From the NCBI GenBank assembly GCA_043818055.1, contig JBDRGF010000122.1, forward strand, positions 1-51,259: a stretch of 51,259 nt of DNA. The letters run 5' to 3'. Of this stretch, positions 1-28,353 are shown one piece after another. Under the pieces are notes generated by a model, which saw only the letters and a list, made by a program, of their open reading frames with translations, searched no databases and was not told the DNA's origin. Position 1 is the stretch's first letter. Every line of letters begins with the position of its first letter. This stretch comes from Pseudomonadota bacterium (lineage in GTDB: Bacteria > UBA10199 > 2-02-FULL-44-16 > JBDRGF01). The translations under genes and the position numbers were made by a program.

Positions 1-1076
1 TCAAACTCCATGCTGTCGAAGATGTTCTCTATTTTGCCATGACCATATTTCTGAGCTTTGCCAGAGTCGAAGAGATCAAATCCTGTGGCAAGAACTACTG
101 CTCCGACCTTAATTTCTATCTCTTCATCCTTGTCATCGAGATTGATGCATCCGAAGGGGCATGCACTCACGCATTTTGCACACTCCTTTCCGTTCAGATG
201 CAGGCAGTTCTCTTTGTCGATCACCGCAACATTTGGAAGGGATCCCGGATAGGGAATGTAAATCGCCCTTCTCTCATCGAGCGATTCGTTGAATTCATTT
301 TTGACCTTTACCGGGCAAATCTCAATACACTGGCCGCATCCGATACAGGTTGAAGTGTCGACATAGCGGGCCTTCTTGTTGATCCTTGCTACAAAATTGC
401 CGTATGAGCCGAGCAGCTCAGTCACCTCGCTGTATGTGTATAGATCGATCGATTTGTTATGGAGGACATCGTCCATAACAGGATCGAGCATACAGGAGGC
501 GCATTCCATGTTGGGAAAGAGGTTCTCAAATCTGGCTACTTTGCCACCTATACAGGGAGATCTCTCAACGAGATATACTTTGCGATTCTTCTGCGCCAGA
601 GTCAAAGCGGACTTCATGCCGGCTACTCCCGCACCGACTACAAGGACTTCCGGGCAGATATCTATCTCCTTGATCTCAAGCGGTTCATGGAGCACCACAC
701 GCGCTACGGCGGCTTTGACGACCGATTTGGCCTTAGTTAACGCCTCGCCTTTGTCGGAGATTACCCATGCGCACTGTTCACGAATGTTGGCTATCTGTAA
801 GAGAAATGGATTTAATCCTGCATCTTTCAAGATTTTGTGAAAAGTCAATTCGTGCTCTTTGGGGGAGCATGCTGCGATGACGACTCTCGTCAGGGAATTA
901 TTTTTGATCTCCTCTGAAACTAGCTTTTGGCCATCCAGAGAGCAGACAAGATTGATGCGCTTGACAAAGACTACATGCTCGAGCTTCTGCACAAACTGCA
1001 ACAGCTCATCGAGTTCGATCCTATCTTTGATATTAGGACCGCATTCACATAGAAAAACCCCGACTCTCTCCCCCAT
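1..1076 (-). CDS. hdrA: Heterodisulfide reductase subunit A-like flavoprotein (HdrA family), 3' end runs off the window edge
   Basis: Not in the ORF track because there is no stop in the window. My translation from ATG 1076 (RBS AGGAGA at 1081-1086) gives MGERVGVFLCECGPNI...IAACSP...NIREQCAWV...LVVGAGVAG (FAD binding)...PNMECASC...CIGCGQCIEICP...CLHLNGKECAKCVSACP...VGAVVLATGFD. These are typical HdrA motifs. Confidence 0.93.
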   Translation of the reverse strand, partial: MGERVGVFLCECGPNIKDRIELDELLQFVQKLEHVVFVKRINLVCSLDGQKLVSEEIKNNSLTRVVIAACSPKEHELTFHKILKDAGLNPFLLQIANIREQCAWVISDKGEALTKAKSVVKAAVARVVLHEPLEIKEIDICPEVLVVGAGVAGMKSALTLAQKNRKVYLVERSPCIGGKVARFENLFPNMECASCMLDPVMDDVLHNKSIDLYTYSEVTELLGSYGNFVARINKKARYVDTSTCIGCGQCIEICPVKVKNEFNESLDERRAIYIPYPGSLPNVAVIDKENCLHLNGKECAKCVSACPFGCINLDDKDEEIEIKVGAVVLATGFDLFDSGKAQKYGHGKIENIFDSMEF

Positions 1077-1101
1077 AACATCTCCTGATTTCAAATCCGT
1101 T

Positions 1102-1264
1102 TGTCATTCTGAGCGAAGAGACTGTGTCGCAATTAGGATTTTGTATGTTCTGTCATTCTGAGCGTAGCGAAGAATCTTGTAATTTCTAACACTTAAGATC
1201 CTTCACTGCGTTCAGGATGACACCAAAAAACAATTACAACACAGTATCTGCGCTCAGCATGACA
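1102..1264. mobile_element. Nested palindromic element: MITE-like unit (about 1117-1249) inside a TGTCATTCTGAGCG...CGCTCAGCATGACA palindrome
   Basis: Outer arms TGTCATTCTGAGCG (1102) and CGCTCAGCATGACA (1264). Inner ends AGAGACTGTGTCGCAATT and AATTACAACACAGTATCT. Internal palindrome TGTCATTCTGAGCGTAGCGAAGAATC...GATCCTTCACTGCGTTCAGGATGACA at 1151-1222. Confidence 0.75.
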
Positions 1265-1273
1265 TCAATATTA

Positions 1274-1519
1274 TTACTCCACTTCCAAAGAATCGATTAT
1301 TATCTTATTTCCATCGACCGCAGTTACCTGAAGCTTTGCCCCCTCAAGGACTGTATTTTTTGCAAAATCATTGAACCAGAAGTTCAAAGATTCCTCTGAA
1401 ATTCTTAATCCATCGCCTAATGTAATGAAGATTTTAGTAGGTTTTTCAGTCAGTTTTTTGGATTCGATTCTTTCAAGCAATTCTTTAACAAGGTTTTGAA
1501 CGATTCCGACTTCATGCAT
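1274..1519 (-). CDS. hypA: Minimal HypA/HybF-like nickel metallochaperone lacking the zinc-finger domain
   Basis: N-terminal MHE nickel motif, I.ITLG...I.EESL.F.F....K.T.LEGAKL, and C-terminal G.KIIIDSLEVE strand. There are no cysteines, so the two CxxC motifs are absent. Confidence 0.82.
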   Translation of the reverse strand: MHEVGIVQNLVKELLERIESKKLTEKPTKIFITLGDGLRISEESLNFWFNDFAKNTVLEGAKLQVTAVDGNKIIIDSLEVE

Positions 1520-1534
1520 AATGTCCCCCCTTCA

Positions 1535-1671
1535 TTAGATGATGTGTCACAATTAGGATTTTGTGCGTGCTGTCATTCTGAGCGAAGCGAAGAATCTTTT
1601 TATTTCTAACACTTAAGATCCTTCACTACGTTCAGGATGACACCAAAAGACAATTGCGATACAGTCTCTAA
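1535..1671. mobile_element. Second copy of the ~135 bp MITE-like element carrying a TGTC-type palindrome
   Basis: Near-identical to 1117-1249. The right end AATTGCGATACAGTCTCT is the reverse complement (one mismatch) of the left end of copy 1, AGAGACTGTGTCGCAATT. Confidence 0.75.
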
Positions 1672-1699
1672 GTCGCTAGCTTTTATATCACTTTTAATA

Positions 1700-3085
1700 T
1701 TAAAAATAAACATCTCTTTTGCCTTTTTCAATAGCGCTCAGCCCCTTTAGAATTTTGGATTTCATATCAGGGAGCGTGACTTTTTCCAGCTCCCTATTGA
1801 TGAGCCTCTTTCCTGATTCAATCAGCGCATTATCTCCATAATCTACTATAAACTCCTTAAATGTGAGGATGGCGTTAGGGGTGCAATAATTGTGGATTGA
1901 TGCTGTTTTAGCTAACTTCATAAATCGTTCCCCTGTTCGTTCGCTTCTGTAACAAGCAGTACAAAAGCTGGGCATATATCCCCTGCCCGTGACCTCCTTG
2001 ACGACGTCGAGCAGCGTTCTCTGATCGTAGAGAGAGAACTGTTCCGAGTTTGCTTTGCTCACCCCTGAATATTCACCGGGCCCGGTGCGCGATCCGGCGC
2101 TGATCTGCGAAATGCCAAGGCCGAACATCCTGTTTCGAAGTTCGGCACTTTCGCGCGTGGATAGGATGATCCCCGTATATGGAATCGCGAGGCGAATTAT
2201 GGCGGTTAACTTTAAAAAATCAGTGTCAGATACCGCATGAGGCGGATTTATGGTCTCTTGAGCCCCAAGGGCAGGCTTAATCCTTGGAATCGAGACCGTA
2301 TGTGGCCCGAAGCCAAACTTCCTTTCAAGATAGTTGGCATGTGTTAGAAGGGCTAATACATCAAACTTGTAATCGTAGAGGCCAAAAAGGACTCCCAGAC
2401 CGACATCATCGATGCCTCCCGAGATAGCCTCATCCATTGCAAAAAGGCGCCCCTTATAGTCCGATTTTGGGCCGGATGGATGCATCTTATTATAGGTTTC
2501 CCGATGGTAGGTCTCCTGAAATAGCTGATATGTGCCAATTCCAGCTTCTTTAAGACGCTTGAAATTATCAACGCTCATCGGCGGGAGGTTGATATTTATC
2601 CTGTTGATTCTGGATCCAGAGCGCTCAAAACGATAAATAGCGTCGATTATCCCTTCTAATTGTTCAATATTGGCTCTCACGGGGTCATCTCCAGCGACGA
2701 GAAGCACCCTTTTATGACCCTGGGAGAGCAAGATCGAGACCTGATTTAATATCTCTTCTGTGGAAAGCGAAACCCTCTGCAAGCTTTCATTATCCTTTTG
2801 AAAGGCGCAATAGCGACAGCTGTTCTGGCATCTGTTGGTGATGTAGAGGGGGGCGAAGAGCACCAGCCTGTTTTTATAAATTGAATCCTTGATCTTAGAT
2901 GCCGCGGAAAAGAGCAACTCGAGGATATCCTCATCATCGTTGTGCAGCAAAATAGCGGCATCATTCAGGCTTAGTCCTTCGAGCTTTAGGGCTTTTTGAA
3001 TAACGCCCTCGGCCATGCTTTTAGAAGAAGTCTTAGCATCGTCAAGCATTGACTGAATTATGTTCTCATCTATAAATGGCTTCAT
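1700..3085 (-). CDS. hydG: [FeFe]-hydrogenase H-cluster radical SAM maturase HydG
   Basis: LFAPLY..N.CQNSCRYC (CX3CX2C), YQLFQETY, GPHTVSIPR (His ligand of the dangler Fe), ILSTRE, and C-terminal PSFCTACYR-X-C with exact CX2CX22C spacing, which ThiH lacks. Confidence 0.93.
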   Translation of the reverse strand: MKPFIDENIIQSMLDDAKTSSKSMAEGVIQKALKLEGLSLNDAAILLHNDDEDILELLFSAASKIKDSIYKNRLVLFAPLYITNRCQNSCRYCAFQKDNESLQRVSLSTEEILNQVSILLSQGHKRVLLVAGDDPVRANIEQLEGIIDAIYRFERSGSRINRININLPPMSVDNFKRLKEAGIGTYQLFQETYHRETYNKMHPSGPKSDYKGRLFAMDEAISGGIDDVGLGVLFGLYDYKFDVLALLTHANYLERKFGFGPHTVSIPRIKPALGAQETINPPHAVSDTDFLKLTAIIRLAIPYTGIILSTRESAELRNRMFGLGISQISAGSRTGPGEYSGVSKANSEQFSLYDQRTLLDVVKEVTGRGYMPSFCTACYRSERTGERFMKLAKTASIHNYCTPNAILTFKEFIVDYGDNALIESGKRLINRELEKVTLPDMKSKILKGLSAIEKGKRDVYF

Positions 3086-4257
3086 AAGCTTAAGTCGGTA
3101 GGCGCCCTTCCCAATTCATGCAGCAGATTGATCGTCTCATCAATCTGGATTTTCAGGTCCTTATCATACCCATATTTTTTAGGATAGATCGAGTAGAGTT
3201 TTTTATATTTTTCCGGCGTAACATTGAGCATGAGAGAATTGGCACCTGATAGGAGCGCTTTTTTTCTTGCTTTAGGATCCAATGTTTCAAGGGCTGTTGT
3301 GACAACGATGTTGGAATCCTCTTTCATCATACGCGTTCTTGCAAGATGCTCGATGATCATTTCTGGATTAGGTGATTTCGTATTTTCAAATGGGGTCGTG
3401 GGGGCCGGTATCAGAGGGCCGAATGAATACATCTCAGGATTGAGCGATAGAGCGCATTTGATATCGTTCAGGTGATCTTCAACCGAAGCATCGGGGAGAC
3501 CCAAAATTGAACCGGTGATGAGTGCGTATCCGATCCTTTTCAGTTCCGAAATTAGTTTTAGCCTGGTTTCTAGTTTAAACCCGGGGCGGGATTTTGCGTA
3601 AATATTAGGGTTTGAAGTTTCAAACCTTAAGAGCACTCCTCTGGCGCCGGCTTTGTAAAACTTCTGGTATAGCTTCAGCGGAAATTCACCTATGCTCAAA
3701 AAGATCAGCACTGGGAAACGGTTGCGGATTGTTGCTATCAGATCTGCAAAAACATCATTTATAAGATCGGGATCCTCTCCTGATTGTAAAACCAGGGCCT
3801 TGAAACCAAATTCATTCGCGGCTCTATCGACAGATGCGAGAATTTTTTCATCTGACATGCGATATCTCTCTATACTTTTATTATCCTTTCTGATGCCGCA
3901 ATAATGACAGTTGTTTCGGCAAAAGTTAGATATTTCCAGTATTCCATGCACGCAACATGAATTGCCGATTGTTTTGTGCCTGATATGATTGGCCTTGGAT
4001 GTGAGGGTCGAACCCGTTTGAGAAAGCTGCAAATCCTGTTTGTCGAGCTCTTTGAAGAGTTCTTTCCAGACCTCTAATATTTTAAGGGCTTCTTTGGCTG
4101 TGATCTTCGATATTACAAACCCACCCTGCGCATATACATAATCGCCTAATTCAAGCTTTTCAAAATCGTTTCTTGCTCGTTTAACAGAATCAAAATACTC
4201 GATCGATACGATGTTATTTTTAATCTCGACAACTTTTCCGGGTATTGAGTAGCACAT
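3082..4257 (-). CDS. HypC/HupF-domain - HydE-like radical SAM fusion protein
   Basis: Residues 1-70 (MCYSIPGKVVEI...GDYVYAQGGFVISKI...EA..IL) match the HypC pattern. The rest has ISNFCRNNCHYCGIR, LQSGED, LLRFET, GLP, GPLIPAPTTPF, TTAL.TL, GANSLMLNVTP and YSIY, all HydE-like. The stop overlaps the hydG start (ATGA). Confidence 0.88.
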   Translation of the reverse strand: MCYSIPGKVVEIKNNIVSIEYFDSVKRARNDFEKLELGDYVYAQGGFVISKITAKEALKILEVWKELFKELDKQDLQLSQTGSTLTSKANHIRHKTIGNSCCVHGILEISNFCRNNCHYCGIRKDNKSIERYRMSDEKILASVDRAANEFGFKALVLQSGEDPDLINDVFADLIATIRNRFPVLIFLSIGEFPLKLYQKFYKAGARGVLLRFETSNPNIYAKSRPGFKLETRLKLISELKRIGYALITGSILGLPDASVEDHLNDIKCALSLNPEMYSFGPLIPAPTTPFENTKSPNPEMIIEHLARTRMMKEDSNIVVTTALETLDPKARKKALLSGANSLMLNVTPEKYKKLYSIYPKKYGYDKDLKIQIDETINLLHELGRAPTDLSL

Positions 4258-4260
4258 AAG

Positions 4261-4324
4261 TGTAGGGGCAGGTTTAAAACCTGCCCTATTCCATTTTTGG
4301 GCGGGTTTGAAACCCGCCCCTACA
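4261..4324. repeat. GTAG-type REP dimer
   Basis: TGTAGGGGCAGGTTTAAAACCTGCCC ... GGGCGGGTTTGAAACCCGCCCCTACA: two hairpins in inverted orientation. Confidence 0.85.
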
Positions 4325-4331
4325 AAAATTG

Positions 4332-4781
4332 TTAAATCGATTGTAAAATGTCGTTCCAGGATTTGTCGAGATCGTTTGCAATACGAACTCCGAGCTTATT
4401 CAGATCATCAATAAGTTTCTTGTCGTCATCCCCGCGTATATTCGAAATTTGATCTGCTATCGAATCAGTGACAAACTGAACAACCTTGTATTTCATTTTT
4501 TGGGCTTTTCTTTCACACAATTTCAAAATTGCTTCATCGCTCAATAAGGAGTCTGCGATCAGCTTTATGTTTTCGGAATATTCCATTGAGAAATTTAAGG
4601 ACTTATTGATTTTCTCTTTATCATCTCCGTACAAGCCGTCGAGAACCTGGCTGATAGACTCTTTTATCACAAATAAATTTGAACGAAGTTCATGTCTTAC
4701 AAAGGAGAGATATTCCGGGATTGAGGCGTCCCCCTTTGGTTTTATTCCCTGCAATTTCTCGTTATATAATTTTGTGTTCAC
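4332..4781 (-). CDS. Small protein with a HisKA (DHp)-like H-box and no ATPase domain
   Basis: EYLSFVRHELRSNLFVIKESISQVLDG resembles an H-box. The GTG start overlaps the cheR stop (GTGA). Confidence 0.6.
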   Translation of the reverse strand: MNTKLYNEKLQGIKPKGDASIPEYLSFVRHELRSNLFVIKESISQVLDGLYGDDKEKINKSLNFSMEYSENIKLIADSLLSDEAILKLCERKAQKMKYKVVQFVTDSIADQISNIRGDDDKKLIDDLNKLGVRIANDLDKSWNDILQSI

Positions 4782-6265
4782 AATGCTCCTTTCAATAAAT
4801 GTTCGATCTCAGATATATAATTCCGACATGTTTCCATGAGAATGTCACGGGTAAAATCAGGTCCATATTGTATTTTTCCTGCGACATCCAACTTCTCCAT
4901 AATTTGCAAAGCATTTTTGAATTCTCTCAAGGCCTTTTTATATTCTTTTAGATATAGATATATGGTTCCAAGATTAAAATAGGCTAGCTCAATATTTGCA
5001 TCGATATATAACACTTTTCTAAAGTTTTCCTCAGCTTCTGTAAGGTTTCCTAACCTGTATTCGACAACGCCTAAAAGATAATGCGCATCCATAGAGAGAT
5101 TATTTTTCGCTATAATTTTGTTTAAAATATCGCAGGCATTTTCATAATCTTCCTGATTAGAAAGTATTTCTGCTCTAAGAAACAACGCCTTTTCATCATC
5201 ATATTTGTTCTTTAAAATCTCATCGATGAGCTGGTTAGATTCGGCATATTCTCTCTTATTGTAATGTTCGAAAGCTTTCTGAAAGAGAACCTGATTTTCA
5301 ATATTATTCGCGGAAACAACTTCTTTTGTGGGAAAAACGATATCGCTCACTTTTTTAGGATGCTCCTTGAATTGACTTGAGATTTCAGGAAAGGAAATGA
5401 ATGGTTTAAAAGACTCCTCTTCGTCATCGAAACTCTTTTCATATATATATGTCGTTGGAAACATTCTCACTTTAAATCTTGTGGGCTTTTGCCACAGAGA
5501 CTCTGAATGGCCAAGAAATAGATATCCCACATCGGATAGACAATCATAGAAAAAATCTATCAATCTCTGGGATATTTCAGGTTTAAAATATATTGTGACA
5601 TTGCGACAAAAGATTATGTCGAGATTGCTGAATGTCTCATCGTCAAAGTCGGGTTTGGTAAGATTTTGATATTTGAAAACGACCATTCTTTTTATTTTTT
5701 CAGATAACAGATATGTATCGTTTTTTTTCGTAAAGTATTTTTTGATATATTCTTCCGGAATATTTTCCACGCTCCTTTTTGAGTATTCACCCTTTTCAGC
5801 AAATTTCAAAGCCTGCTTGTTGATGTCAGTTCCAAATATACGTATTTTCCAATCTTTTGGGAATTCCAGAGTTTCCAAAACCGCGATCGCTATTGAATAA
5901 GGCTCATCTCCACGGGAACATCCGGCCGACCATATTTGCAATTCCTTAGATGAGGAGCTTGCTTTTCGTTTGTAAATTTCTGGCAGAATATTTTTTATAA
6001 GTACTTCAATCTGAGGGCTGTTTCTAAAAAAATATGTTTCACCTATTACTATATCTTCAATCAGCTGGGTGAGCTCCTCCGGGCTTGTTTTCAAAAGTGA
6101 GTAAAACTCCATGAAAGAGTTGATTTTATTTATCGACATTCTGGAAAGAAGAATCGAATCAAGTATGTCTTTTCTGTTCTTGTCGAACGATATTCCGGAT
6201 TCTTCAAGCAACAGCGCGTTGAACAGATTAAACTCTGCATCATTGGATTGTTTAGCTGTGGTCAT
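4778..6265 (-). CDS. cheR: CheR-type methyltransferase with C-terminal TPR repeats (WspC-like)
   Basis: ETYFFRN, IWSAGCSRGDEPYS, GTDIN, IIFCRNV.IYF and LFLGHSES, plus a C-terminal TPR (AHYLLG...AYFNLG). Confidence 0.93.
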   Translation of the reverse strand: MTTAKQSNDAEFNLFNALLLEESGISFDKNRKDILDSILLSRMSINKINSFMEFYSLLKTSPEELTQLIEDIVIGETYFFRNSPQIEVLIKNILPEIYKRKASSSSKELQIWSAGCSRGDEPYSIAIAVLETLEFPKDWKIRIFGTDINKQALKFAEKGEYSKRSVENIPEEYIKKYFTKKNDTYLLSEKIKRMVVFKYQNLTKPDFDDETFSNLDIIFCRNVTIYFKPEISQRLIDFFYDCLSDVGYLFLGHSESLWQKPTRFKVRMFPTTYIYEKSFDDEEESFKPFISFPEISSQFKEHPKKVSDIVFPTKEVVSANNIENQVLFQKAFEHYNKREYAESNQLIDEILKNKYDDEKALFLRAEILSNQEDYENACDILNKIIAKNNLSMDAHYLLGVVEYRLGNLTEAEENFRKVLYIDANIELAYFNLGTIYLYLKEYKKALREFKNALQIMEKLDVAGKIQYGPDFTRDILMETCRNYISEIEHLLKGAL

Positions 6266-6741
6266 TTTACCATCCCTGACAGAAGATTAGCCTCATCTTT
6301 ATTAAGGACAGTGTCGAGGTTCAACAATATAATAACCCTTTTGCCAATCCTGACAACTCCATCGATGCAATCGCTCTCAGAGAAGTTGTTGAGAAGGTCG
6401 GGCTTAGGATCTACACTCTTATTTGCAAGGTCCACTACATCTTTCACGGCATCGACTATCAAACCGATAATATAATGTTTTATTTGGCAAATTAAGATTC
6501 GATTATGAAAAGATTTATTTGCTGCGACTTTGAACCTCTTTCTCATGTCCATGATGATGATAGATTTTCCCCTGAGATTGATTACACCTTCTATAAAATC
6601 CGGCGCTCCAGGAAGTGTGTGTATCTGTTGTGGCATCAGAACCTCTCTGACATGCTTAACCGCTATACCCAGTTCTTCGCCAAGCATTTCAATAACCACA
6701 ATATCGCCTGCTGATCCTATTTTGGTATAATCGAAAGTCAT
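6262..6741 (-). CDS. cheW: CheW coupling protein
   Basis: VREVL...LPGAPDFIEGVINLRG...GLIVDAV...GVVRIG.R.IILL. Confidence 0.92.
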   Translation of the reverse strand: MTFDYTKIGSAGDIVVIEMLGEELGIAVKHVREVLMPQQIHTLPGAPDFIEGVINLRGKSIIIMDMRKRFKVAANKSFHNRILICQIKHYIIGLIVDAVKDVVDLANKSVDPKPDLLNNFSESDCIDGVVRIGKRVIILLNLDTVLNKDEANLLSGMVK

Positions 6742-6757
6742 TCTATCGCATTTCCTT

Positions 6758-7810
6758 TCATTTACATAATTGCTTAATTATTATTTCTGCTATCTTTTTG
6801 CCGGGGAGAACAAAATCAATAACTCCCATCTCTATTGCCGCTTTAGGCATCCCAAATACTACTGAAGTCTCTTCATCCTGAGCGATCGTCAGTCCTCCCT
6901 TTTCTTTGATGGCCTTTATTCCGGATGCTCCATCTTCACCCATACCTGTCAAAATTACGCCAATAGCCTTTTCCCCATAAACCTTTGCAACAGAATGCAA
7001 TAATATGTTTCCAGGTTTATTATTATTTTCATCGACAATCGATATCAGCTTGATCGACATATCTTCGGCTATAATCATGTTAAAATTTGCAGGGGCAAAA
7101 TAAATGACGCCTCCCATCAATTTTTCATTATCTTCTGCTAATTTTACCTTTATTTTACACTTTGACTGGAGCCATGAGACTAATTCTTTAAGAAAAGATT
7201 CGGATATATGCTGCACTACAACAACCGGACATCTGAGATGCGTGGGAAGTTCTTCAAAGATTGAGGCGAGTTCCTTAGGACCGCCTGTGGAGGTTACGAT
7301 TGCGATAATTTTATATGTTGTAGAGTTTATCTGATGATAATGAAATAATTTGTCCTGTTCTTCAATTCTTGCAAGAGGGTGTCGAATAACTTTTACTTTG
7401 CTAGAGTCTTTGATCAACTTGAGAAATGCAGGAATCAGCTTTTGATTGGATAGCATTGTAGCTTCATCGTTGGTAACAATATCGATAACACCATAAGAAA
7501 TAGCGTTGATCAGCTTAGTTTTGTCAATTTTTGAATTTGAATATGGAACTGCTAATATTGGCACCGGCCTATAGGCCATGATCTTTTTGATAATCAGATA
7601 ATCGTCATGCACAGACATCAAATCGTCAATAATTATGACATCTGGCTTATGTTCTACAAGAGAGGATATAATATCCCTTGGCAACGACAGCTCTGCAAGA
7701 AGTACAATATCTTTATCTTTTTCCAAAATTCTTTTGATCGACTCTATAAAAGATAGTGTCGAACCTATTATTATCACCTTTATATTATTTTTGTTTAGGT
7801 CTGTAGTCAT
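6758..7810 (-). CDS. cheB: CheB methylesterase with a degenerate N-terminal receiver domain
   Basis: Catalytic motifs TSTGGP, VQHI and LTGMGEDGA, plus AQDE.TSVVFGMP. The N-terminal REC-like domain lacks the usual acidic pair and Lys. Confidence 0.92.
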   Translation of the reverse strand: MTTDLNKNNIKVIIIGSTLSFIESIKRILEKDKDIVLLAELSLPRDIISSLVEHKPDVIIIDDLMSVHDDYLIIKKIMAYRPVPILAVPYSNSKIDKTKLINAISYGVIDIVTNDEATMLSNQKLIPAFLKLIKDSSKVKVIRHPLARIEEQDKLFHYHQINSTTYKIIAIVTSTGGPKELASIFEELPTHLRCPVVVVQHISESFLKELVSWLQSKCKIKVKLAEDNEKLMGGVIYFAPANFNMIIAEDMSIKLISIVDENNNKPGNILLHSVAKVYGEKAIGVILTGMGEDGASGIKAIKEKGGLTIAQDEETSVVFGMPKAAIEMGVIDFVLPGKKIAEIIIKQLCK

Positions 7811-7820
7811 AAGATTTTCG

Positions 7821-10013
7821 TCATCCGATCAATCTGTCAATTGTATCCATGAGATTAGTTTGATCAAAGGAACCCTTTACAATATAAGCAGATCCTCCGG
7901 CTTCAATTCCTCTTTTTTTGTCTTCATTTTTTTCAAGCGCTGTGACAAATATAATAGGTATATTTTCATCTCTTTTGTTCTTCCTGATCAATGCACATAG
8001 CTCAAAGCCGTTCATCCTTGGCATCAATATGTCCGTGATGATTAGATCAAATGACTCGTCATTGAACTTATCCATAGCATCCATTCCATCGATTGCGGCT
8101 GTGACTTCGAATCCCTTTGTTTTAAGGATTGTACTCATGAGTTGTCTTGTGGAGAGTACGTTTTCGACAATGAGTATTCTTTTGCCCTGCCTCAACTTGC
8201 TTTGCAAAGGCTTCTTCTCAAGTAGAGCAGGATGGCACATATCACTTCGCCTGATTAAATCTCCTACATCCAAAATTACAATGACATCTCCCGTACCCAA
8301 TATTGCAGCTCCGGCAACATTATCAACCTTCCCAAGATGAGGGCCCAGGCTCTTTATAAAAATCTCCTCCTCACCGCAGATTTCGTCGACTATAAATCCA
8401 ACCTCTTTATCAAGCGAGGATGTAATTATAATATTAGCCTCATCTGAATTACCTTTTTCAGTTTTTTCATTCTCTTTTGGCAATGCGAGAATATCTCTTA
8501 AATTAGCAAGCGGCAGCAGGCGGTCTCTGATGCTTACTGCCATTTTGCCTTCCAGATGTGACATCTCACTTAGTTTAATTTTCAGACATTCGTTGACAGA
8601 ATACATTGGGACGCCAAAGATCAATCCCCCTGATTTGACCAGAAGAACCTGGATGATAGCTATCGTTAACGGCAAAACAATTTTGAATGCCGTGCCCTCA
8701 TCTTTTACTGAATCAAGTATGATCTGTCCTTTCAACAGTTCAATCTCTCTTTTGGCTATATCAAGACCGATTCCTCGTCCTGATACATCAGTAATGATTG
8801 GGCTGGTGGAAAAACCATCCATAAAGACCATATTGACAATCTCTTTCCCGGTCATCTCACTTAACTTGTCATTGGAAATGAGATTTTTTTGGATGAGAAT
8901 GTTTTTGATATTTTCCGGATCTATCCCTGACCCATCATCCTTTATTTCTATCAAGACATTTCCGGCCTGATGATAGGCATGAATAGTGATGTTGCCTGAT
9001 TTGGGTTTGCTTTTTTTTAGCCTTACATCAGAAGATTCAATGCCGTGATCTATACAGTTGCGCACAATATGCATGATGGGAGTCTTAATACCCTCCAGAA
9101 CTTTTTTATCGAGTTCTGTCTCCTCTCCAATGATATTGAGATTTACCTCTTTTTCTTCCTGAGTTGCAATATCCCTGACCATTCGGGGGTAATTTTGAAA
9201 AATAGTGGAAAGCGGCAACATCCTCAGCTTCTTCGTTTCACTCTGAAGCTCTTCTACTACGGGTTCCAACTGAAGAACATCTATGGATATTTCGTCATAA
9301 AGGGTCGTTGAAACATCTTTGAGTTTAAAAAGTTTCGATGTGCACTGACTTAGTATATTCATAATCTCAGAATCAGCAGGAATATCAAAGGCGTTGAGTT
9401 TGTCGGTTAAAGTGATTATGTTCTTTGATAAATCGGAGGAGAGTTGTGAGGCCTTTTTTGCATGTGATAATCTATGAGGATTGCGCATCTTATTTATCAC
9501 CAGCTCCCCAACCAGATTGAGCAACATTCCAACTCTTGATGAGGGGATTCGTATATAATCATCAATTCCCCCTTCAGAGACTTTCTCTTTGGTCATTTCC
9601 GTGGCTGGAATATTTTTTTTGAGCTTTCCTTTGCTGGGAGTGTTTTTTTCTGCAAGGCAGGAATCAAGCAATGAAAATGTTTCAGTGATGTCTATCTCTT
9701 TGTCGACTAGTGTATTCCTGATCACATCAAGGGAAGCAAAAATTGCATTTGCTATCTTCGGGGAAAATTTTATTTTCTTATTTAAAAGTTTTTCAAAAAT
9801 ATCTTCAATTTTGTGTGCAACATCCTGAATCTTGTTATATCCAAATACTCTCGCAGAGCCCTTCACTGTATGCGCAATTCTGTTCATCTCCTTGACGAGC
9901 CTGAGATCTGCCGGCTTTTTCTCGAGTTTGACCAGGGCGCGGTCGAGTATTGTAAGGTTATCTTCAATCTCAGCCCTGAATATCGCTATCAGATCTTTAC
10001 TGATTTCTGTCAT
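7821..10013 (-). CDS. cheA: Hybrid CheA histidine kinase (Hpt-dimer-HATPase-CheW-REC; WspE-like)
   Basis: RIAHTVKGSAR (Hpt His), HIVRNCIDHGIE, DDGSGID, SGRGIGLD, a CheW domain and C-terminal REC (ITDILMP). I moved the start to ATG 10013 (RBS AGAGGAA) because the longer ORF's 5' extension is repeat-derived. Confidence 0.93.
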   Translation of the reverse strand: MTEISKDLIAIFRAEIEDNLTILDRALVKLEKKPADLRLVKEMNRIAHTVKGSARVFGYNKIQDVAHKIEDIFEKLLNKKIKFSPKIANAIFASLDVIRNTLVDKEIDITETFSLLDSCLAEKNTPSKGKLKKNIPATEMTKEKVSEGGIDDYIRIPSSRVGMLLNLVGELVINKMRNPHRLSHAKKASQLSSDLSKNIITLTDKLNAFDIPADSEIMNILSQCTSKLFKLKDVSTTLYDEISIDVLQLEPVVEELQSETKKLRMLPLSTIFQNYPRMVRDIATQEEKEVNLNIIGEETELDKKVLEGIKTPIMHIVRNCIDHGIESSDVRLKKSKPKSGNITIHAYHQAGNVLIEIKDDGSGIDPENIKNILIQKNLISNDKLSEMTGKEIVNMVFMDGFSTSPIITDVSGRGIGLDIAKREIELLKGQIILDSVKDEGTAFKIVLPLTIAIIQVLLVKSGGLIFGVPMYSVNECLKIKLSEMSHLEGKMAVSIRDRLLPLANLRDILALPKENEKTEKGNSDEANIIITSSLDKEVGFIVDEICGEEEIFIKSLGPHLGKVDNVAGAAILGTGDVIVILDVGDLIRRSDMCHPALLEKKPLQSKLRQGKRILIVENVLSTRQLMSTILKTKGFEVTAAIDGMDAMDKFNDESFDLIITDILMPRMNGFELCALIRKNKRDENIPIIFVTALEKNEDKKRGIEAGGSAYIVKGSFDQTNLMDTIDRLIG

Positions 10014-10028
10014 TGGATATTTCCTCTG

Positions 10029-10113
10029 TGTCATTCTGAGCGACTGGCCGGCAGGAGCGAAGAATCTTGTTATTCCGAACACTCAAGATCCTTCGCTAAA
10101 GCTCAGGATGACA
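10029..10113. repeat. TGTC/CGTC-type palindromic repeat
   Basis: TGTCATTCTGAGCG...GCGAAGAATCTTG...CAAGATCCTTCGC...GCTCAGGATGACA, the same family as the core of the elements at 1151-1222 and 1571-1642. Confidence 0.8.
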
Positions 10114-10146
10114 AAAAAAGTAAATTCACTAACAGCCAAAAAATAC

Positions 10147-11577
10147 CTACAGCCTAAACTCCCTAACCGAGTTGTTCATATCTTCGGATAACTTGATCAG
10201 ATCGTTGGATGAAACAAAAGATTGTTTTGTTGATACGACAAACTGATGGGTGACAGCGTCGATGTTCTGCATCGCAGTTACTACCTGATCCGAGGCGCTT
10301 TTTTGTTGCTGGGTTGCCAGGGAGATATCTTTAGCGGCATTTGTGGTCTCCTCAACCATCTCCAGGCCCTTTCCCACCCATTTGGTTGACTCTTCAATTC
10401 CCATTATGGTCAAATTAGTCTCAGACTGCATTTCATTGATCACATTTCGAATCATCTCAGTTGATTCCGAAGACCTCTCAGCTAACTTTCTTACCTCCTG
10501 TGCAACGACTGCGAAACCACGCCCTGCCTCGCCTGCTCTCGCCGCTTCTATCGCGGCATTCAGAGCCAATAGATTTGTCTGCTCTGAAATATCATCAATG
10601 ATCCTTGTGATATTTCCAATCGACTGCGATTTTTCAGCAAGTGAGAGGATCTTTTTGGCAGTTTCATCAACCTTGTCGTTTATCGAATGCATTCCGGTTA
10701 AAGTTCTGTCCGCAATATCAGCCACACTTCCAGCCTTTAGGGCGATCTGGGACGCGGTGGATGCGAGCTCTTTGATGGTAGAAGAAACCTCTGCAACAGC
10801 TGATGACTGGACATTGGCCCCGCTCGTCTCCTGTTCCGCGTTCTTTCGTATCTCTTCACATGCCGCATTGAGATGCAGGCTGGCATCCCGCACCTTTTGC
10901 ATAAGCGAGCTTAACTTTTCAATGGTTTGATTGATCATGAACCCAAGTTTATTTAATATTTCAGTAGTAAAAGAAAAATTTGTCCTTACGGAAGAATCGC
11001 CCTGTGAAAAACGACTCAGGACCTCAAATCCCTCTGATAATCCCAATGCAAGTTCCATCGAGATATTCTCGACCTCAGTTTTCTGGGCAGCAGCAAGGTT
11101 GATCATGGCATCAAACTGATCGGAGAGGTGATCGATATCATCCCCTGAGTGTTTCAGATAGAGGATGCAATCCTTACAGTTTCCGATCTTATGGGCATAT
11201 TCGCCCTGAACGCCATCCCCACAGAGCGTACCTGCAATATACCAGCATTTGACGCCTAATTTGCCAAATGCAGGGCAGGATTCTTTATTGCAGTTTTGCT
11301 CCTTCCAACACTCAAATCCCTTTCTCAACGATTTGGTTTGTGAAAAATTCCCGCTGATTAAAACTTCGTCGATGGCCTCTGTTACTCCGTTGATGCGCTT
11401 TGAAAACTTTTTAAAAATAAGAATTGAGAAAAAAAGTGTAAAAACCAAGCCCAGACCTAACAAGAGAAGAACATCCAGATGAGGAGTGCGAAAATATTCC
11501 AATATAGCAATAAAAATAAGAAAGCTTAGCGGAACAGAGTAACCAACAGCAATGCTTTTACCATAACTCAATTTCAT
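10147..11577 (-). CDS. Methyl-accepting chemotaxis protein with a cytoplasmic Cys-rich two-CW domain
   Basis: Two N-terminal TM helices with a very short loop, then CWKEQNC...CPA...CWYIAGTLC...CKDC, then the signalling hairpin [37 protein letters not shown]. Confidence 0.92.
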
Positions 11578-11589
11578 CTAATCCCCCCT

Positions 11590-12075
11590 TCAAACCTGAT
11601 CAAAGATCTTTTTTATAGACAACATTCCGATCAACTTATTTTCAAAATTGCAAACCCCTGTGAAATATTCAGCCCTCTCAGGGGCTATCGTCAGCAAAAC
11701 CGGCTCAGTTAAACTTTTAGGTATAGCTTCTACCCGTAAAACCTCATCTACGAGAAGAGCTGTCTCTTTTTCACCCAACTCAATGACGACAAGTCTTGAG
11801 TCTTCTGTTAACTGCTCACTTTCCAAGCTTAACGCTTGCCTGATATCAGTAACCGACAGAATATTACCTTTTAAACTGATAATGCCCGCAATATTTTTTG
11901 GAGCCGAGGGCAAAAAAGTTATTTTATCTATGGTGATGATCTGTTTTACATCTAAAATATCAACGCCGAACCACTCATTTGCTAATCTGAATAATGCAAG
12001 TTCCACACATTCTTCTTTTACAGAATCATCTTTATAAAAATCATCTTCATGTATAGTTATCTTTTCTTCTTTCAT
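11590..12075 (-). CDS. cheW: CheW coupling protein
   Basis: FRLANEWFGVDI..V..I....IT.LPSAP..IAGIISLKG...LLVDEV. Confidence 0.9.
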   Translation of the reverse strand: MKEEKITIHEDDFYKDDSVKEECVELALFRLANEWFGVDILDVKQIITIDKITFLPSAPKNIAGIISLKGNILSVTDIRQALSLESEQLTEDSRLVVIELGEKETALLVDEVLRVEAIPKSLTEPVLLTIAPERAEYFTGVCNFENKLIGMLSIKKIFDQV

Positions 12076-16288: not shown

Positions 16289-19200
16289 TCAATATGAAGC
16301 AGATCTTCTTCTCCTCCTCATATAGCCTATTCCAATCCCCAACAGCGAAATTGCGATTATCAGATAGTGTACCAGTGCTGCCGACTTTTCATTTCCTAAT
16401 GCTGAGCAGCCGCATCCGTGACCGGCTGCTACGAAACTTAACGGTTTCGATGCAACGGCGAAAGGAGTCACGTACGGATCACCTGTTACCTTGTCCTGAA
16501 CTATCATATAATCGTTGTCACCGAGGCCTACTAAAAGAGCTGTTCCTTTAGTCCCTTTCGCCACCCTATTATCGATCTCAGTAAGGTATTCTTCAAATGT
16601 GAGCGTATCCTCATCTGCCTTTTTCATATCGCCAAGGCCTGAGAACCTTCCTGCTAATGATTTCGGGGTGGCCCTGATATTTGTTACGATGGCGTTTGTT
16701 CCAAGTCCCGTTTGTTGGCTATCAGCCATCGCATCGACACCGCTTGAGACTGTAACAACTTTATTGATTATTGTTGTGCCATTCGACTCTGATAGATCGG
16801 TTACGGGATAATTTTGATACTTTTGTAACACTGAAGGAACATTTGAAGCACTCATCAGTGGCAAGGTTATGCTTCCTTGAGCTGTTGGAAGTGGAGCGAG
16901 AAGCAGATTATCGATTCCCATCGATTTCATAGTCGGAAGGGGTTCAAAGTCTTTAGTGAAATCCCTGTTGGAGATATCACCTGCCGTCTGGAAGATGGCA
17001 AATTTGTTCCCTTTACCGACTCCCGGCAATCTGCTGCCGGCGGGAGCAAGGCTTGGGGAAACAGATTGCTTTGTCTGAGCCGCTAGAGGAAAGAAGCATC
17101 TGACGGTTATAGTCGAGTAGCTAGGTTCCCCGATGTGGCGATAATGTGTGAGTCCTGTCTTCAATACAACTTCATCCACCATCTCCTTATAAAGCTCAGC
17201 AATCTCGGCATCGGAATATCCAGAGACCTCAGCTGTGCATGTTGGCTCAGTCGCTGATACATATTTTGGTACTTCTTTAACAATTGCGCCCGGGGATTCG
17301 CATATGCAGTCGGTGCTGCATATCTGATCAGGTTTACATACCCTGTTGTCAGCATTGCATTCATCACCTTTGGTGAGAGGGCCAAATCTCTGGCACTCTA
17401 GTACATCTTTGTTGATTACAACAGTCACTTCACCTTGTCCCTGCATGATCATTCCACGAGGGGAAAGGCCTTTGAAGGTTTTAAATCCACCGGGTGGTTG
17501 AGGAACAACAAACCTAGATGGAACAACAGCCACAGCCGGGCGAACATTAGCGACTATATTATGTTCAACTCTTATAGATCCTTGAATCGGCTGTCTGAAT
17601 TCCTCCCTCATCTCTGCATGTATTTGATTACTTGGAGGAGGCGGTTGATTCAGTGCGGATAAATCAATTCTATTTTCAATCGGCTTAGCCAGATCACGCG
17701 CACGGTTTGAAATATTCTGATCATCGGAGAGTTGAGGTTGTTGAGCGAGATTCTGGCCCCCCAGATTATCGCCAGATGGTAGTTCTCCCATCTGGTTCGA
17801 TGCTTGGTCAACGGATTGAGGTATCGGGATTGCAGTTAGATCGTATCCCAAGAATTTAACCATGCCATAGAAGAGCATTGACGCTATGATATCTGTTGGA
17901 TTCTCAGGTTGAAACATAGCCTTGTTGATGTATGATATCAACTCATCTGATTTTACTATAAATTCATCAGTTGTCCCTTCAGGAGCCTCAATGCGCTGCA
18001 TCTTTTCAACAATCTGATCACGAATATGTGTAAGCATCATCGGTTGTGTTGCATCGGTAGCATATCCTATATCGTCTGCATCCGCCTGGGCTAGCAGCAA
18101 ATTGGTGTTTATTTCAGATATCGTCACATCATTCATAGCCAGCATGAGTGTTTTTTCAACAGAGGGGGCAAACACTGCAGAAGTGCAAGCGGGGTTATTT
18201 GCCGAATGATTCCATGGAATAGGTGTAAGAGGATCAGGTTCTGGTATAGATACCGGTTGACGGCGTTTTGCTGGTTGTGCTTTTTTGACTTTTGTTTTTT
18301 TGACACCTATATTCCCACATTTATCGATATTACATGGATCCAAACAACATTCATGATCAGGGGGAAGAGCAATTTCGTCTCCTTGAATTTTACAGACTTC
18401 GATCTTCTGGCATGATGCTGAATAGTAATAAGGGGCATTCTTATCAGCGAATGGATAACTAGCAACTTTTTGCACCTTATCTATCAATCTGGCACTTGGC
18501 GTGGCGAGCTGTTCCATTACTTTAGGCAAATAATAATATAGATGAGACAACAACGTATCCGTCGGGCTATCAGCGCACTCCGGGTCTTTGGCATTATTAC
18601 AGCATATCGGCCTTAAGGACAATGGCTGTTTGTTTGTGACTGCTGCTATGTTAGGTAGCGGATCATCAACATCGATGCTCGCAACACCCATTATTCCATC
18701 TTCAAGACCACTAACGAATTTAATAGGATCAACACTCTTTCCTCTTGTAAAACCGACCGGAATCATCTTTTTTTCGACAAACAGCGGTCCAAACGCAGCA
18801 TGTACTTGTCCCGCTGATTTGTTGATATCCCCTTTCACTGGTTGTGCAACTACATCGCCCATGAGAATATCTGATTTTCCATCCTTATCGATATCAGAGA
18901 TTTCAACTGCTGCAATCTGTGAAGTAGCTAAATAAGCTGGTATATACCGTGGAACGAGATTTGGATATTGAGCTGAGTTGGCCTCTGTTACAAAAATGAT
19001 ATTTCCATTTGCATCATTTGTTCCATAATAGACAGTAACGCCATTCGCAAACATTCTCTGATTGAGATTGTTTCCATTTGCGTCAAGTAAATCGCTTACA
19101 AAATAAACATCTGCAGTCGGATCGGTAAGTCTTTTTTTACGACCCCCTACTTTAAGACCCACCACTTTTGTATTTTTTCCTCTCCAACTCACAACACAGT

Positions 19201-20872
19201 CACTGATATCGTCTACATCGATATTTAAATTTCCACAAGCGATCTGATATGGGGCATATCCCTCGCTGCTATCCAGATTTGGAAATTTATCGACCGGCGG
19301 TGTGATTTCAAATGTTCTAGGAACAGATATATATCTGTTTTCAGAAGTATTTGTGAGATCTAAACAACTTCTTTCGTACATGTTCCGTGAGTGATCTGAG
19401 GGAGAAACCATGTATAGGTAATACTTACCGTCTGAACAATTTTTATTGTAATTTGGACAAGTCGAATCGCCGCTTGCAATCACCAAGCTTTTATCAACGC
19501 CTGCTTTTTTAACTACAGCCATATCCCACGATCCAGGAGGTGCTATGAAAAACATAAGGGGAGCAAATATCTCATTGGGATTTCCAACATTCTGATTGTT
19601 GTTCCAGCCATCAATAATCCCCGTAACTCCTCTGTCGCTTGTCCAGATAGTCCCAAAGGAGAAGTTGGGGTGTGGAATGATGTTTGAAACAGGTGTAAAG
19701 ATCCCATTCTCTTCTATTCCCCATAAATCGCCCCAAGGATGAGCCTTACCGTCTTTGCAGATCCTTGGATTGCCAACATAATTAAGCATGAGTTGTTCAT
19801 TTGGGAGTACAACTCTGTTCAAAATTGCATAACTCGTAATGTAATCTGTAACCTGCACATTGAATTTTTCAACTGCGATCGGGTTTAGATTATGAGCAAG
19901 CATGCTTGCCAAATTGTTAAAAAGATCAATTCCTTGTCCACCTCCTCTTGGCAATTGAAGTGTCGAATAACCGCTGAGTTTCACAGTATCCTGAACCATC
20001 TTTTTAAAAAACACCGTGGGTGATAAATAAGGTAAATTCATTGAAGTTGAAAGAAGATACTTAATCTGGGCAGCACCAACACCCAGAAGCAATTGAGGTG
20101 AAAGATCTAAATTCAACGGGTCATGACTTAAAGTTATTAAACCAGCATCCAAGTTGGCGATATCGTAAGTGATGACATCTTTGATAGAGTACTTGCCCTT
20201 TTCACTCGGATACAAAAATGTCCAGTCGAAAGGAGAAACTTTATTGATCACTGTTCCGGGATATGTAGAAATATCGTATGGTTTTTGATCCTCTCTGCCA
20301 TCACCCAGGAAGGCTTTTTCTAGTGGGTCCTCACCAAAGATTGATTTGAATTCCCCCGGATTCCTAGGAGAACGAATATCAGCAACTTCAAGCTGGTGGC
20401 TTATTGAGTTTGTATCTCCTAAAGAAAATTCCATTCCCAGATAGTATTGACCGTCAACAAATCTGTTGGGAGAAAAACCGTGCATAGCTTTATTTCCAGA
20501 TGAAGTTCCAGTTGCTTCGAGCATTGTATCCCTCGGTTGAACTGTCAGTCTTCTATTCCCTTCATCAGGCACTAGTCCTGGCACAGCAACGACATCACCA
20601 ACTTCGTAATAAGTGCCATCAATCTTAATACGCTTATCCTGTTTGAAATTGTGACTATCGTCAAAGGCGCTGGGATGTGAGAAAAATTTGACATGTGTGG
20701 CATCGGATTTTTTTGGTGTTCCCTGCCCCACCTGTTCGTTAGCTGACCCCACAGGTCTTGGCTCCGAATAGTTCACCCTTCCCTGTTGTGCGATGAGATC
20801 TGGAATAAATAAATTGATTAAAAAGAGGGAAACAACGATTACCGTGGTGAGAGAACCTAATTTCATCTTCAT
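16289..20872 (-). CDS. Large secreted surface protein (1527 aa) with FG-GAP-like motifs and a MYXO-CTERM-like sorting tail; paralog 1
   Basis: Signal peptide; DIDKDGKSDILMG and GNLNIDVDDISD motifs; Cys-rich segments; C-terminal GHGCGCS + hydrophobic helix + RRRRR. Confidence 0.8.
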   Translation of the reverse strand: MKMKLGSLTTVIVVSLFLINLFIPDLIAQQGRVNYSEPRPVGSANEQVGQGTPKKSDATHVKFFSHPSAFDDSHNFKQDKRIKIDGTYYEVGDVVAVPGLVPDEGNRRLTVQPRDTMLEATGTSSGNKAMHGFSPNRFVDGQYYLGMEFSLGDTNSISHQLEVADIRSPRNPGEFKSIFGEDPLEKAFLGDGREDQKPYDISTYPGTVINKVSPFDWTFLYPSEKGKYSIKDVITYDIANLDAGLITLSHDPLNLDLSPQLLLGVGAAQIKYLLSTSMNLPYLSPTVFFKKMVQDTVKLSGYSTLQLPRGGGQGIDLFNNLASMLAHNLNPIAVEKFNVQVTDYITSYAILNRVVLPNEQLMLNYVGNPRICKDGKAHPWGDLWGIEENGIFTPVSNIIPHPNFSFGTIWTSDRGVTGIIDGWNNNQNVGNPNEIFAPLMFFIAPPGSWDMAVVKKAGVDKSLVIASGDSTCPNYNKNCSDGKYYLYMVSPSDHSRNMYERSCLDLTNTSENRYISVPRTFEITPPVDKFPNLDSSEGYAPYQIACGNLNIDVDDISDCVVSWRGKNTKVVGLKVGGRKKRLTDPTADVYFVSDLLDANGNNLNQRMFANGVTVYYGTNDANGNIIFVTEANSAQYPNLVPRYIPAYLATSQIAAVEISDIDKDGKSDILMGDVVAQPVKGDINKSAGQVHAAFGPLFVEKKMIPVGFTRGKSVDPIKFVSGLEDGIMGVASIDVDDPLPNIAAVTNKQPLSLRPICCNNAKDPECADSPTDTLLSHLYYYLPKVMEQLATPSARLIDKVQKVASYPFADKNAPYYYSASCQKIEVCKIQGDEIALPPDHECCLDPCNIDKCGNIGVKKTKVKKAQPAKRRQPVSIPEPDPLTPIPWNHSANNPACTSAVFAPSVEKTLMLAMNDVTISEINTNLLLAQADADDIGYATDATQPMMLTHIRDQIVEKMQRIEAPEGTTDEFIVKSDELISYINKAMFQPENPTDIIASMLFYGMVKFLGYDLTAIPIPQSVDQASNQMGELPSGDNLGGQNLAQQPQLSDDQNISNRARDLAKPIENRIDLSALNQPPPPSNQIHAEMREEFRQPIQGSIRVEHNIVANVRPAVAVVPSRFVVPQPPGGFKTFKGLSPRGMIMQGQGEVTVVINKDVLECQRFGPLTKGDECNADNRVCKPDQICSTDCICESPGAIVKEVPKYVSATEPTCTAEVSGYSDAEIAELYKEMVDEVVLKTGLTHYRHIGEPSYSTITVRCFFPLAAQTKQSVSPSLAPAGSRLPGVGKGNKFAIFQTAGDISNRDFTKDFEPLPTMKSMGIDNLLLAPLPTAQGSITLPLMSASNVPSVLQKYQNYPVTDLSESNGTTIINKVVTVSSGVDAMADSQQTGLGTNAIVTNIRATPKSLAGRFSGLGDMKKADEDTLTFEEYLTEIDNRVAKGTKGTALLVGLGDNDYMIVQDKVTGDPYVTPFAVASKPLSFVAAGHGCGCSALGNEKSAALVHYLIIAISLLGIGIGYMRRRRRSASY

Positions 20873-28132: not shown

Positions 28133-28353
28133 ACAGCGACCCTTTGAATGCCGATGAACTCCAAACTTTTTTCATCATATTTGTTGTCTTCAATCTCCAA
28201 AGAGAGAGCGATGGCTTCTCTTATACGCACGATTAGTTCATCCAGCGATTTAGCCTGAGTATGGCATCCTTTCAACTCAGGAACTTCAGCAATAAAATAC
28301 CCATCCTCATCCCTTTCTATAATCACATTAAAAACTCTCTTATGATTTTTCAT
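28129..28353 (-). CDS. hicB: HicB family antitoxin
   Basis: VIIERDEDGYFIAEVPELKGCHTQAKSLDEL..RIREAI.L.LE; ATG 28353 follows GAGGTG. Confidence 0.9.
   Translation of the reverse strand: MKNHKRVFNVIIERDEDGYFIAEVPELKGCHTQAKSLDELIVRIREAIALSLEIEDNKYDEKSLEFIGIQRVAV

Follow-up and report, generated by a model that had tools for sequence, protein, structure and literature searches.

Can the enzymes that build the iron unit of [FeFe] hydrogenases also serve the maturation of a [NiFe] hydrogenase? This question is raised by contig JBDRGF010000122.1 (hereafter C122) of a Pseudomonadota bacterium (GenBank assembly GCA_043818055.1; 2.93 Mb in 166 contigs, 93.62% complete, 2.73% contaminated). The window analyzed is the entire contig of 51,259 nucleotides, at the left end of which a HypC domain is fused to a HydE-like radical S-adenosylmethionine (SAM) enzyme, in a row with HydG, a short HypA, and HdrA. 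Gene content, conservation, residue patterns, and distribution were analyzed. The fusion is tied to [NiFe] hydrogenases, excludes HypD, and is a member of neither known hydrogenase maturation system. From sequence evidence, the module likely assembles the Fe-cyanide-carbonyl half of the [NiFe] site by an alternative route, replacing HypD, HypE, and HypF.

The fusion, its companions, and its probable target

A preliminary description had reported four co-oriented genes, and the open reading frames and family searches bear this out. The minus-strand order is hypC::hydE, hydG, hypA, hdrA, with the stop of the fusion overlapping the hydG start in an ATGA at bases 3082-3085:

3082..4257, minus strand: HypC-HydE fusion, 391 amino acids; a HypC domain with Cys2, then a long helix, then a HydE-like radical-SAM barrel (C113/C117/C120)
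4066..4257, minus strand: HypC domain of the fusion (residues 1-64); Cys2 kept, Gln44 at the position of the conserved HypC histidine
1700..3085, minus strand: HydG, 461 amino acids; radical-SAM triad, His262, and auxiliary-cluster motif CX2CX22C (C375-C401)
1274..1519, minus strand: short HypA, 81 amino acids; MHE start, no CxxC zinc site
3..1094, minus strand: N-terminal part of HdrA, truncated at the contig end; likely start ATG at 1076

Residues 1-64 of the fusion match HupF_HypC (PF01455) at 46 bits (cut-off 28.5), and the HypC model TIGR00074 at 42.6 bits, below its cut-off of 48. The protein also matches Radical_SAM (PF04055), and its best NCBIfam model is HydE (TIGR03956), at 246.5 bits, slightly below the cut-off of 254.6 that some other fusions narrowly pass. 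In fold and sequence, it is closest to Thermotoga maritima HydE (E 9e-71; template-modelling scores 0.75/0.84); BioB, PylB, and HmdB gave far lower scores and were rejected as identities of the barrel. NCBI and JGI annotate these fusion proteins as HydE or biotin synthase. The AlphaFold2 model is a single confident unit (predicted local distance difference test 93.1, predicted template-modelling score 0.92), and both PF01455 and PF04055 are present in 120/120 best homologues among the matches listed, which together rule out a chance read-through as the origin of the fusion. In this model, the HypC domain attaches to the barrel via helices before the first strand, which by topology would be the product end. 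A plasmid search with the fusion returned 29 records, all below 60% identity; the five matches listed begin at residue 41 or later and thus lack the HypC part.

HydG acts on tyrosine, cysteine, and iron. Its product is complex B, Fe(cysteinate)(CO)2(CN), which a second cyanide is thought to release (PMC10114646, in excerpt). A HydE radical then attacks the sulfur of complex B and frees an Fe(CO)2CN unit, which M224 binds and M291 is proposed to hold in passing (PMC10114646 and PMC11826987, both in excerpt), with R54, T134, R155, and T269 as cyanide contacts (PMC11826987, in excerpt). We mapped these residues in 181 fusions, setting aside partial fusions and five loci whose start patterns differ. 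The CX3CX2C cysteines C113/C117/C120 are kept in 181/181, and equivalents of HydE E58, R159, M224, T269, M291, and Y306 (T. maritima numbering) are retained, M224 as M276 in 176/181 and M291 as M343 in 181/181. Overall, the SAM cluster and the residues that process complex B are retained in about 90-100% of the fusions. K309 is mostly Arg in fusions and Lys in this protein. Of the cyanide contacts, only T269 is kept: R54 is replaced by His104 in 181/181, T134 mostly by Ile, Phe, or Val, and R155 by Gly207 in 166/181. Ordinary HydEs have R, T, and R at these three positions in 19/19, 18/19, and 19/19 cases, respectively. Cys102 is an additional invariant residue of the fusions. It should be noted that the search patterns themselves partly impose Cys2, Cys102, and His104 on the 80 loci described below; the same three residues are found in an unfiltered alignment and in 21 phylum-sample fusions found through PF01455.

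The HypC part is similarly mixed. It has been proposed that HypC by itself brings Fe, held on Cys2, into the apo large subunit (PMC11565642, in excerpt), and a HypC histidine (H51 in Escherichia coli) has been proposed as a further Fe ligand in HypCD (PMC12134894, in excerpt). Cys2 is invariant in 58/58 unfiltered homologues. The histidine position, where stand-alone HypCs have VHAGF or IHAGF, is Gln44 in 181/181 fusions and Tyr in the divergent fusion of genome G001. The latter (L098:1501-2790) is deep-branching, with 40% identity and a different HypC sequence, and shares Cys2, the Cys/His pair, and the Arg-to-Gly change. In a quick tree, 40 fusion barrels fall on one branch (Shimodaira-Hasegawa-like approximate likelihood ratio test 100), apart from 19 ordinary HydEs, including those from the same genomes. 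Because a ThiH-like protein with a very long branch, labelled BioB, served as the outgroup, we claim only that the fusions form one side of this branch, with no direction of origin.

The second gene encodes an ordinary HydG (TIGR03955, 511.7 bits, cut-off 312), with the auxiliary CX2CX22C cysteines (C375-C401) and His262, which we take to be the dangler-iron histidine from its position in an alignment with 4wcx. ThiH was rejected as its identity (297 bits vs 512 for HydG, with the auxiliary cluster present). The third is a HypA (PF01155, 40.6 bits) with the N-terminal MHE nickel motif and without the two CxxC zinc motifs. Such zinc-site-free HypAs of about 80 amino acids are common (e.g., window 1274-1519, L087:9756-9998, and L250:12685-12936). 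The short form had been described as part of the cassette; it is present there and recurs in many fusion loci, but it is not specific to the module: a canonical hypFCDEA cluster also holds one, and fusion-bearing relatives rely on zinc-type HypA. It was rejected as a defining part.

The genome of the window encodes a single [NiFe] large subunit, on the 3.4-kb contig C83, in the order hdrA C-terminal part, mvhD, mvhG, mvhA. The HdrA piece in the window matches residues 1-367 of a relative's 661-amino-acid HdrA, and C83 starts with residues 503-660. Since these two pieces are the only HdrA matches in the genome, C83 very probably continues C122 after a gap of about 400 bases. The Ni-Fe enzyme that had been suspected past the left edge is thus very probably encoded by mvhD-mvhG-mvhA, and the cassette very probably stands at the head of an HdrA-Mvh [NiFe] operon. 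The tetranucleotide profile of C83 (r 0.765) lies near the 5th percentile of chunks of this size. In a relative of the same order (G004), hdrA-mvhD-mvhG-mvhA-protease-hypA faces hydG and the fusion on one contig.

MvhA belongs to group 3c (matches to 7t2r_D and 5odc_F, E about 1e-108) and carries two CxxC pairs and the PRG and VAT motifs (C62/C65/C455/C458, R389, T413), the first motif beginning with Lys, not Arg. Each of the 27 partner large subunits aligned (27/27) retains the four cysteines together with the PRG arginine and the threonine that follows it, and these proteins resemble five from Hyp-bearing genomes. In known structures, this arginine and threonine bind the two cyanides. Because the large subunits keep the usual active-site residues, a non-canonical ligand ratio, raised earlier as a possibility, is not favoured, and the pattern mildly favours the usual Fe(CN)2CO.

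Absences in this genome were judged from hidden Markov model (HMM) searches, because local tblastn with the short HypC and HypA queries missed the window's own copies. HypD had no match in the profile search of this 93.6% complete genome, and HypF and HypE had only weak matches far below cut-off. The best HydF match was an MnmE-like GTPase (90 bits vs 325). The fusion is the only HypC and the only HydE-like protein found. The genome scan proposed in the preliminary description thus returned no hypD, hypE, hypF, or hydF and one [NiFe] large subunit. Its statement that the window lacks hydF, hydA, and hypB/D/E/F holds for the window, but the genome does hold hydA, on contig C14; of the set hydA, hydF, and full hypDEF, hydA alone is present.

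Distribution among genomes

A sample that was meant to avoid selection by the fusion was drawn evenly from the phylum of genome G031 (record title: Omnitrophota); the 200 genomes and G031, itself chosen for its fusion, make 201. PF01455 was found in 80/201, never in more than one copy; the frame is short in 56 of them, long in 23, and a fragment at a contig edge in one. The 21 long frames that were fetched are all HypC-HydE fusions, and the remaining two were known as such from the first set below. HypD was found in 57/57 genomes with a non-fused HypC and in 0/23 fusion genomes (6.5 expected if independent; Fisher p 4e-4, which is overstated as kin are not independent). A [NiFe] large subunit was found in 23/23 fusion genomes vs 0/57 of the HypC-less genomes tested (57 of 121; HypD genomes were not part of this comparison), and it lies within 18/21 of the fetched stretches, where large subunit, protease, short hypA, and fusion often follow one another in this sequence. 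Since [FeFe] enzymes are common in this phylum (HydA in 86/201 genomes), so is HydG (95/201). Among genomes without HydA, HydG was found in 11/11 with the fusion vs 3/104 without it.

In one genome of the analysis (G232), where HydA was not found, HypC, HydE, and HydG form a single frame of 915 amino acids that ends a group-4 [NiFe] operon. This chain (L251:9651-12398), a single case, stands beside a protease gene and an 80-amino-acid hypA, and the auxiliary motif of its HydG is CX5CX19C-like.

The first set of genomes came from an alignment-based scan of species genomes, which gave 443 related stretches, 80 of which were kept as loci; a scan for related loci with a single protein found nothing. 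The 80 neighbourhoods contain a [NiFe] large subunit in 32 cases, any [NiFe]-system gene in 47, HydG in 46, HypB in 6, HydF in 2, and HydA in 1, with HypD, HypE, or HypF in 0/80. Protease and hypA genes are often directly upstream of the fusion. Whole-genome searches covered 50 of the 80 locus genomes, one of which duplicates the relative G004. A PF00374 match was found in 49 of the 50 (cysteines checked in part of the hits), HypD in one, HydF in 12, and HydA in 14. HydG scored over cut-off in 48/49. The predicted co-occurrence is therefore observed in both sets: the fusion tracks [NiFe] large subunits (23/23; 49/50) and excludes HypD (0/23; 1/50).

A second, ordinary HydE match in a shorter frame is present in 12/12 HydF-bearing fusion genomes, and 10/12 of these have one HydG over cut-off; one HydG therefore seems to feed two different HydE-type proteins. 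HypF, HypE, and HypB were under cut-off in 5/5 further fusion genomes tested. Altogether, no HypB over cut-off was found in the genome of the window, G001, G004, G018, G212, and G232, so nickel insertion may also be simplified, with hypB present at 6/80 other loci.

Among 30 relatives, four have the fusion (G001, G004, G007, and G018, the search showing the last as two pieces of one frame), and HypD, HydF, and HydA were found in none of these four. Five others have HypD without the fusion. One relative (G019) has hypF beside its hydrogenase, and the fragmented G010 has a large-subunit piece with neither maturation system found. A group-1-like [NiFe] hydrogenase occurs at L110 in G072, a fusion genome without a HypD match; the module may thus extend beyond groups 3 and 4. 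Homologues were found in records labelled Omnitrophota, Elusimicrobiota, Planctomycetota, Spirochaetota, WOR-3, Margulisbacteria, and Micrarchaeota.

A possible route and its alternatives

The preliminary description had proposed that HydG and the HydE-HypC fusion act in place of HypD/E/F and HydF, and the genomic predictions of this proposal hold. The module most likely works like a splice of the two known maturation systems. The particular steps are more tentative, and we put the chance that they are right as described at a little under even. HydG would pass complex B to the HydE-like barrel, which would strip the cysteinate. The remodelled lower pocket (His104, Cys102, Gly207) would keep a single Fe without dimerising, taking the place of the HypD scaffold (HypD Cys41). 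One CO would probably be exchanged for the spare cyanide also made by HydG. Cys2 of the fused HypC would then deliver the unit to MvhA, HypA would supply nickel, and the target in this genome would be the HdrA-MvhDGA enzyme. When MvhA was modelled in complex with Fe and the HypC domain of the fusion, the median was 0.24 against a mark of 0.32, with the controls not folded, a result that we count neither for nor against the route.

Several observations weigh against this assignment. The product of HydG has two CO and one CN and the [NiFe] site has one CO and two CN; the exchange step is inferred. HypB and the maturation protease had no match in the genome of the window. Given these absences and the truncation of MvhA at the end of C83, unassembled DNA of this one genome could harbour hyp genes. 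The same genome has HydA on C14 (locus L003; 768 bits, cut-off 765) with neither HydF nor an ordinary HydE found, and genome G055 is alike. No [NiFe]-system gene is near the fusion at 33/80 loci, many of them short. G049 holds both the fusion and hypFCDE, the single HypD case; G080 has the fusion without a PF00374 match; and in three fusion genomes (G077, G185, and G223) HydG had no match. Finally, all genomes are metagenome bins, with non-independent kin.

Some of these cases deserve description. The HydA of C14 belongs to a three-gene HydC/B/A-like [FeFe] hydrogenase (C14:21835-25148) with intact-looking H-cluster motifs, its two partner genes lying upstream of hydA, and the tetranucleotide profile of the contig (r 0.958, low-middle of the range) neither excludes nor proves that it belongs to the genome. 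If hydF and hydE are not simply missing from the assembly, this HydA is matured unusually. The module may have a second role here beside [NiFe] maturation. The canonical hyp cluster of G049 (L250, G049:C4) adjoins its own group-1-like large subunit, and elsewhere (L041/L042) this genome has the fusion with a single hydG, plus hydF, hydA, and an ordinary hydE, which makes it a natural example of how two systems might divide their targets. In G080 (L093/L195; record labelled Woesearchaeota), hydG is interrupted by a TGA and no large-subunit match was found, possibly a decaying copy.

A variant of the proposed route would avoid the exchange step: the fusion would pass on the HydG unit unchanged, giving Fe(CO)2(CN) [NiFe] centres, and the HydA of this genome would be matured without HydF by the same line. 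We consider this variant unlikely. Such centres would break the rule that all [NiFe] hydrogenases have Fe(CN)2CO.

Also unlikely is a partial role, in which HydG would give either CO alone or both CO and cyanide in free form, the barrel would be a scaffold or do other chemistry, and an unrecognised protein would complete the unit. Free ligands would remove the mismatch; a report of HydG releasing free CO and cyanide is mentioned in the excerpt of PMC10114646, and the anaerobic CO source is described as an open question in that of PMC12134894. However, the retention of the SAM cluster and of the complex-B-processing residues in most fusions argues against this role, and CO alone would be insufficient, because cyanide usually comes from HypF and HypE, neither of which was found in the six fusion genomes tested (6/6). 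Clustering of 84 loci gave no other conserved neighbour.

It is improbable that the fusion is an [FeFe] maturase dispensing with HydF, its HypC domain acting as the carrier, or that it serves both hydrogenase classes. Such a role would fit the genome of the window and G055, where HydA occurs with the fusion as the only HydE and with HydF not found, and it would fit the retention of M224 and M291, the proposed hosts of dimerisation. However, the cyanide contacts R54, T134, and R155 of the dimer pocket are replaced, no HydA match was found in 36/50 and 11/23 fusion genomes, and ordinary HydE is retained in every HydF-bearing one (12/12). Neighbourhoods with HydA (1/80) are also far outnumbered by those with a [NiFe] large subunit (32/80).

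More doubtful still is that hypDEF are missing because the bins are incomplete, and that the fusion has an accessory or regulatory function alongside a normal pathway. In favour of this, the assembly is 93.6% complete in 166 contigs and is interrupted within both hdrA and mvhA, neither HypB nor the protease was found, and G049 has both sets. However, the same search under the same quality filter found HypD in 57/57 genomes with a non-fused HypC and in 0/23 with the fusion, fusion relatives at 94-97% completeness are without HypD/E/F, and the hyp cluster of G049 adjoins a large subunit of its own. That the [NiFe] genes are never matured and the module builds a cofactor for another, unrecognised enzyme is barely credible: HypB was not found in 6/6 fusion genomes tested, but the four cysteines are kept in 27/27 aligned large subunits, and protease and hypA genes often lie directly upstream of the fusion, with HypB adjoining in 6/80 loci.

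Surroundings and comparison with known systems

Short repeats surround the cassette:

1123..1249: copy, downstream of hypA, of an intergenic repeat that occurs throughout the genome (26 hits, 20 contigs) and is not peculiar to the module
1543..1669: second copy of this repeat, on the upstream side of hypA, with 89.8% identity to 1123-1249
4256..4325: short intergenic repeat with a hairpin, immediately ahead of the fusion (70 hits, 41 contigs)

These represent two short intergenic repeat families spread genome-wide (window 1123-1249, 1543-1669, 4256-4325, and 10029-10126), one pair of which brackets hypA. One copy of the 4256-4325 family sits between mvhG and mvhA on C83. Promoter and terminator scans gave matches at chance level only. 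Directly upstream of the fusion, a co-oriented chemotaxis-like cluster (4332-12075) encodes a methyl-accepting protein, two CheW-like proteins, a CheA-like protein with a receiver domain, a CheB-like protein, and CheR with tetratricopeptide repeats; the family search covered CheR alone. Three large, mutually similar, secreted-looking proteins of 1233-1527 amino acids (16289-20872, 28350-32105, and 32245-35946) have proline-rich stretches and C-terminal membrane anchors.

Neither a HypC-HydE fusion nor HydG-dependent [NiFe] maturation was found in the titles and beginnings of abstracts that the literature search covered; supplement tables of genome surveys could mention the fusion. A 2025 review states that six Hyp proteins are required for the anaerobic NiFe(CN)2CO cofactor and calls the anaerobic CO source the most pressing question (PMC12134894); neither HydG nor tyrosine occurs in its text, and the word "fusion" does not occur in that of PMC9431212. 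If the proposed function is correct, the module would be a second [NiFe] cofactor pathway in which tyrosine supplies both ligands and three Hyp proteins are bypassed. The machineries of [FeFe] and [NiFe] maturation would then be connected, HydG would act beyond [FeFe] enzymes, and a mononuclear Fe-CO/CN intermediate on a HydE-like barrel would become accessible to trapping; such a two-gene maturase could simplify recombinant hydrogenase production. The module is common, present in 23/80 HypC-bearing genomes of the phylum sample. Calls of hydE and hydG need not imply an [FeFe] hydrogenase, and missing hypDEF need not imply a dead [NiFe] enzyme.

With the HypC-HypD-HypE-HypF system (E. coli, Thermococcus kodakarensis; 2z1c for HypC, 3vyr for HypCD), the module shares the HypC fold with Cys2, the linkage to hypA, protease, and large-subunit genes, and the presumed end product and target. 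Unlike in that system, HypC is fused here to a radical-SAM barrel and has Gln in place of the histidine, HypD/E/F were not found, and CO and CN would derive from tyrosine, not from carbamoyl phosphate. HydE of T. maritima (3ciw, 7o1o, 7o1t) is the best sequence and fold match, sharing the SAM cysteines and the E58/R159/M224/T269/M291/Y306 equivalents, but the fusion adds the N-terminal HypC, the R54/T134/R155 changes, and Cys102, forms a separate branch, and coexists with ordinary HydE when HydF is present. With the HydG-HydE-HydF system, it shares a HydG over the family cut-off, with the auxiliary cysteines and histidine, and the coupling of HydG to HydE; HydF, however, was not found here or in 38/50 fusion genomes, the partner is a [NiFe] large subunit, and the product would be mononuclear. 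The hdrA, mvhD, mvhG, mvhA order is that of MvhADG-HdrABC (group 3c; 5odc, 7t2r), but the maturation genes here are of the hybrid kind. The parts are known folds; what would be new is the proposed pathway, whose components fit neither known system by the defining features of each.

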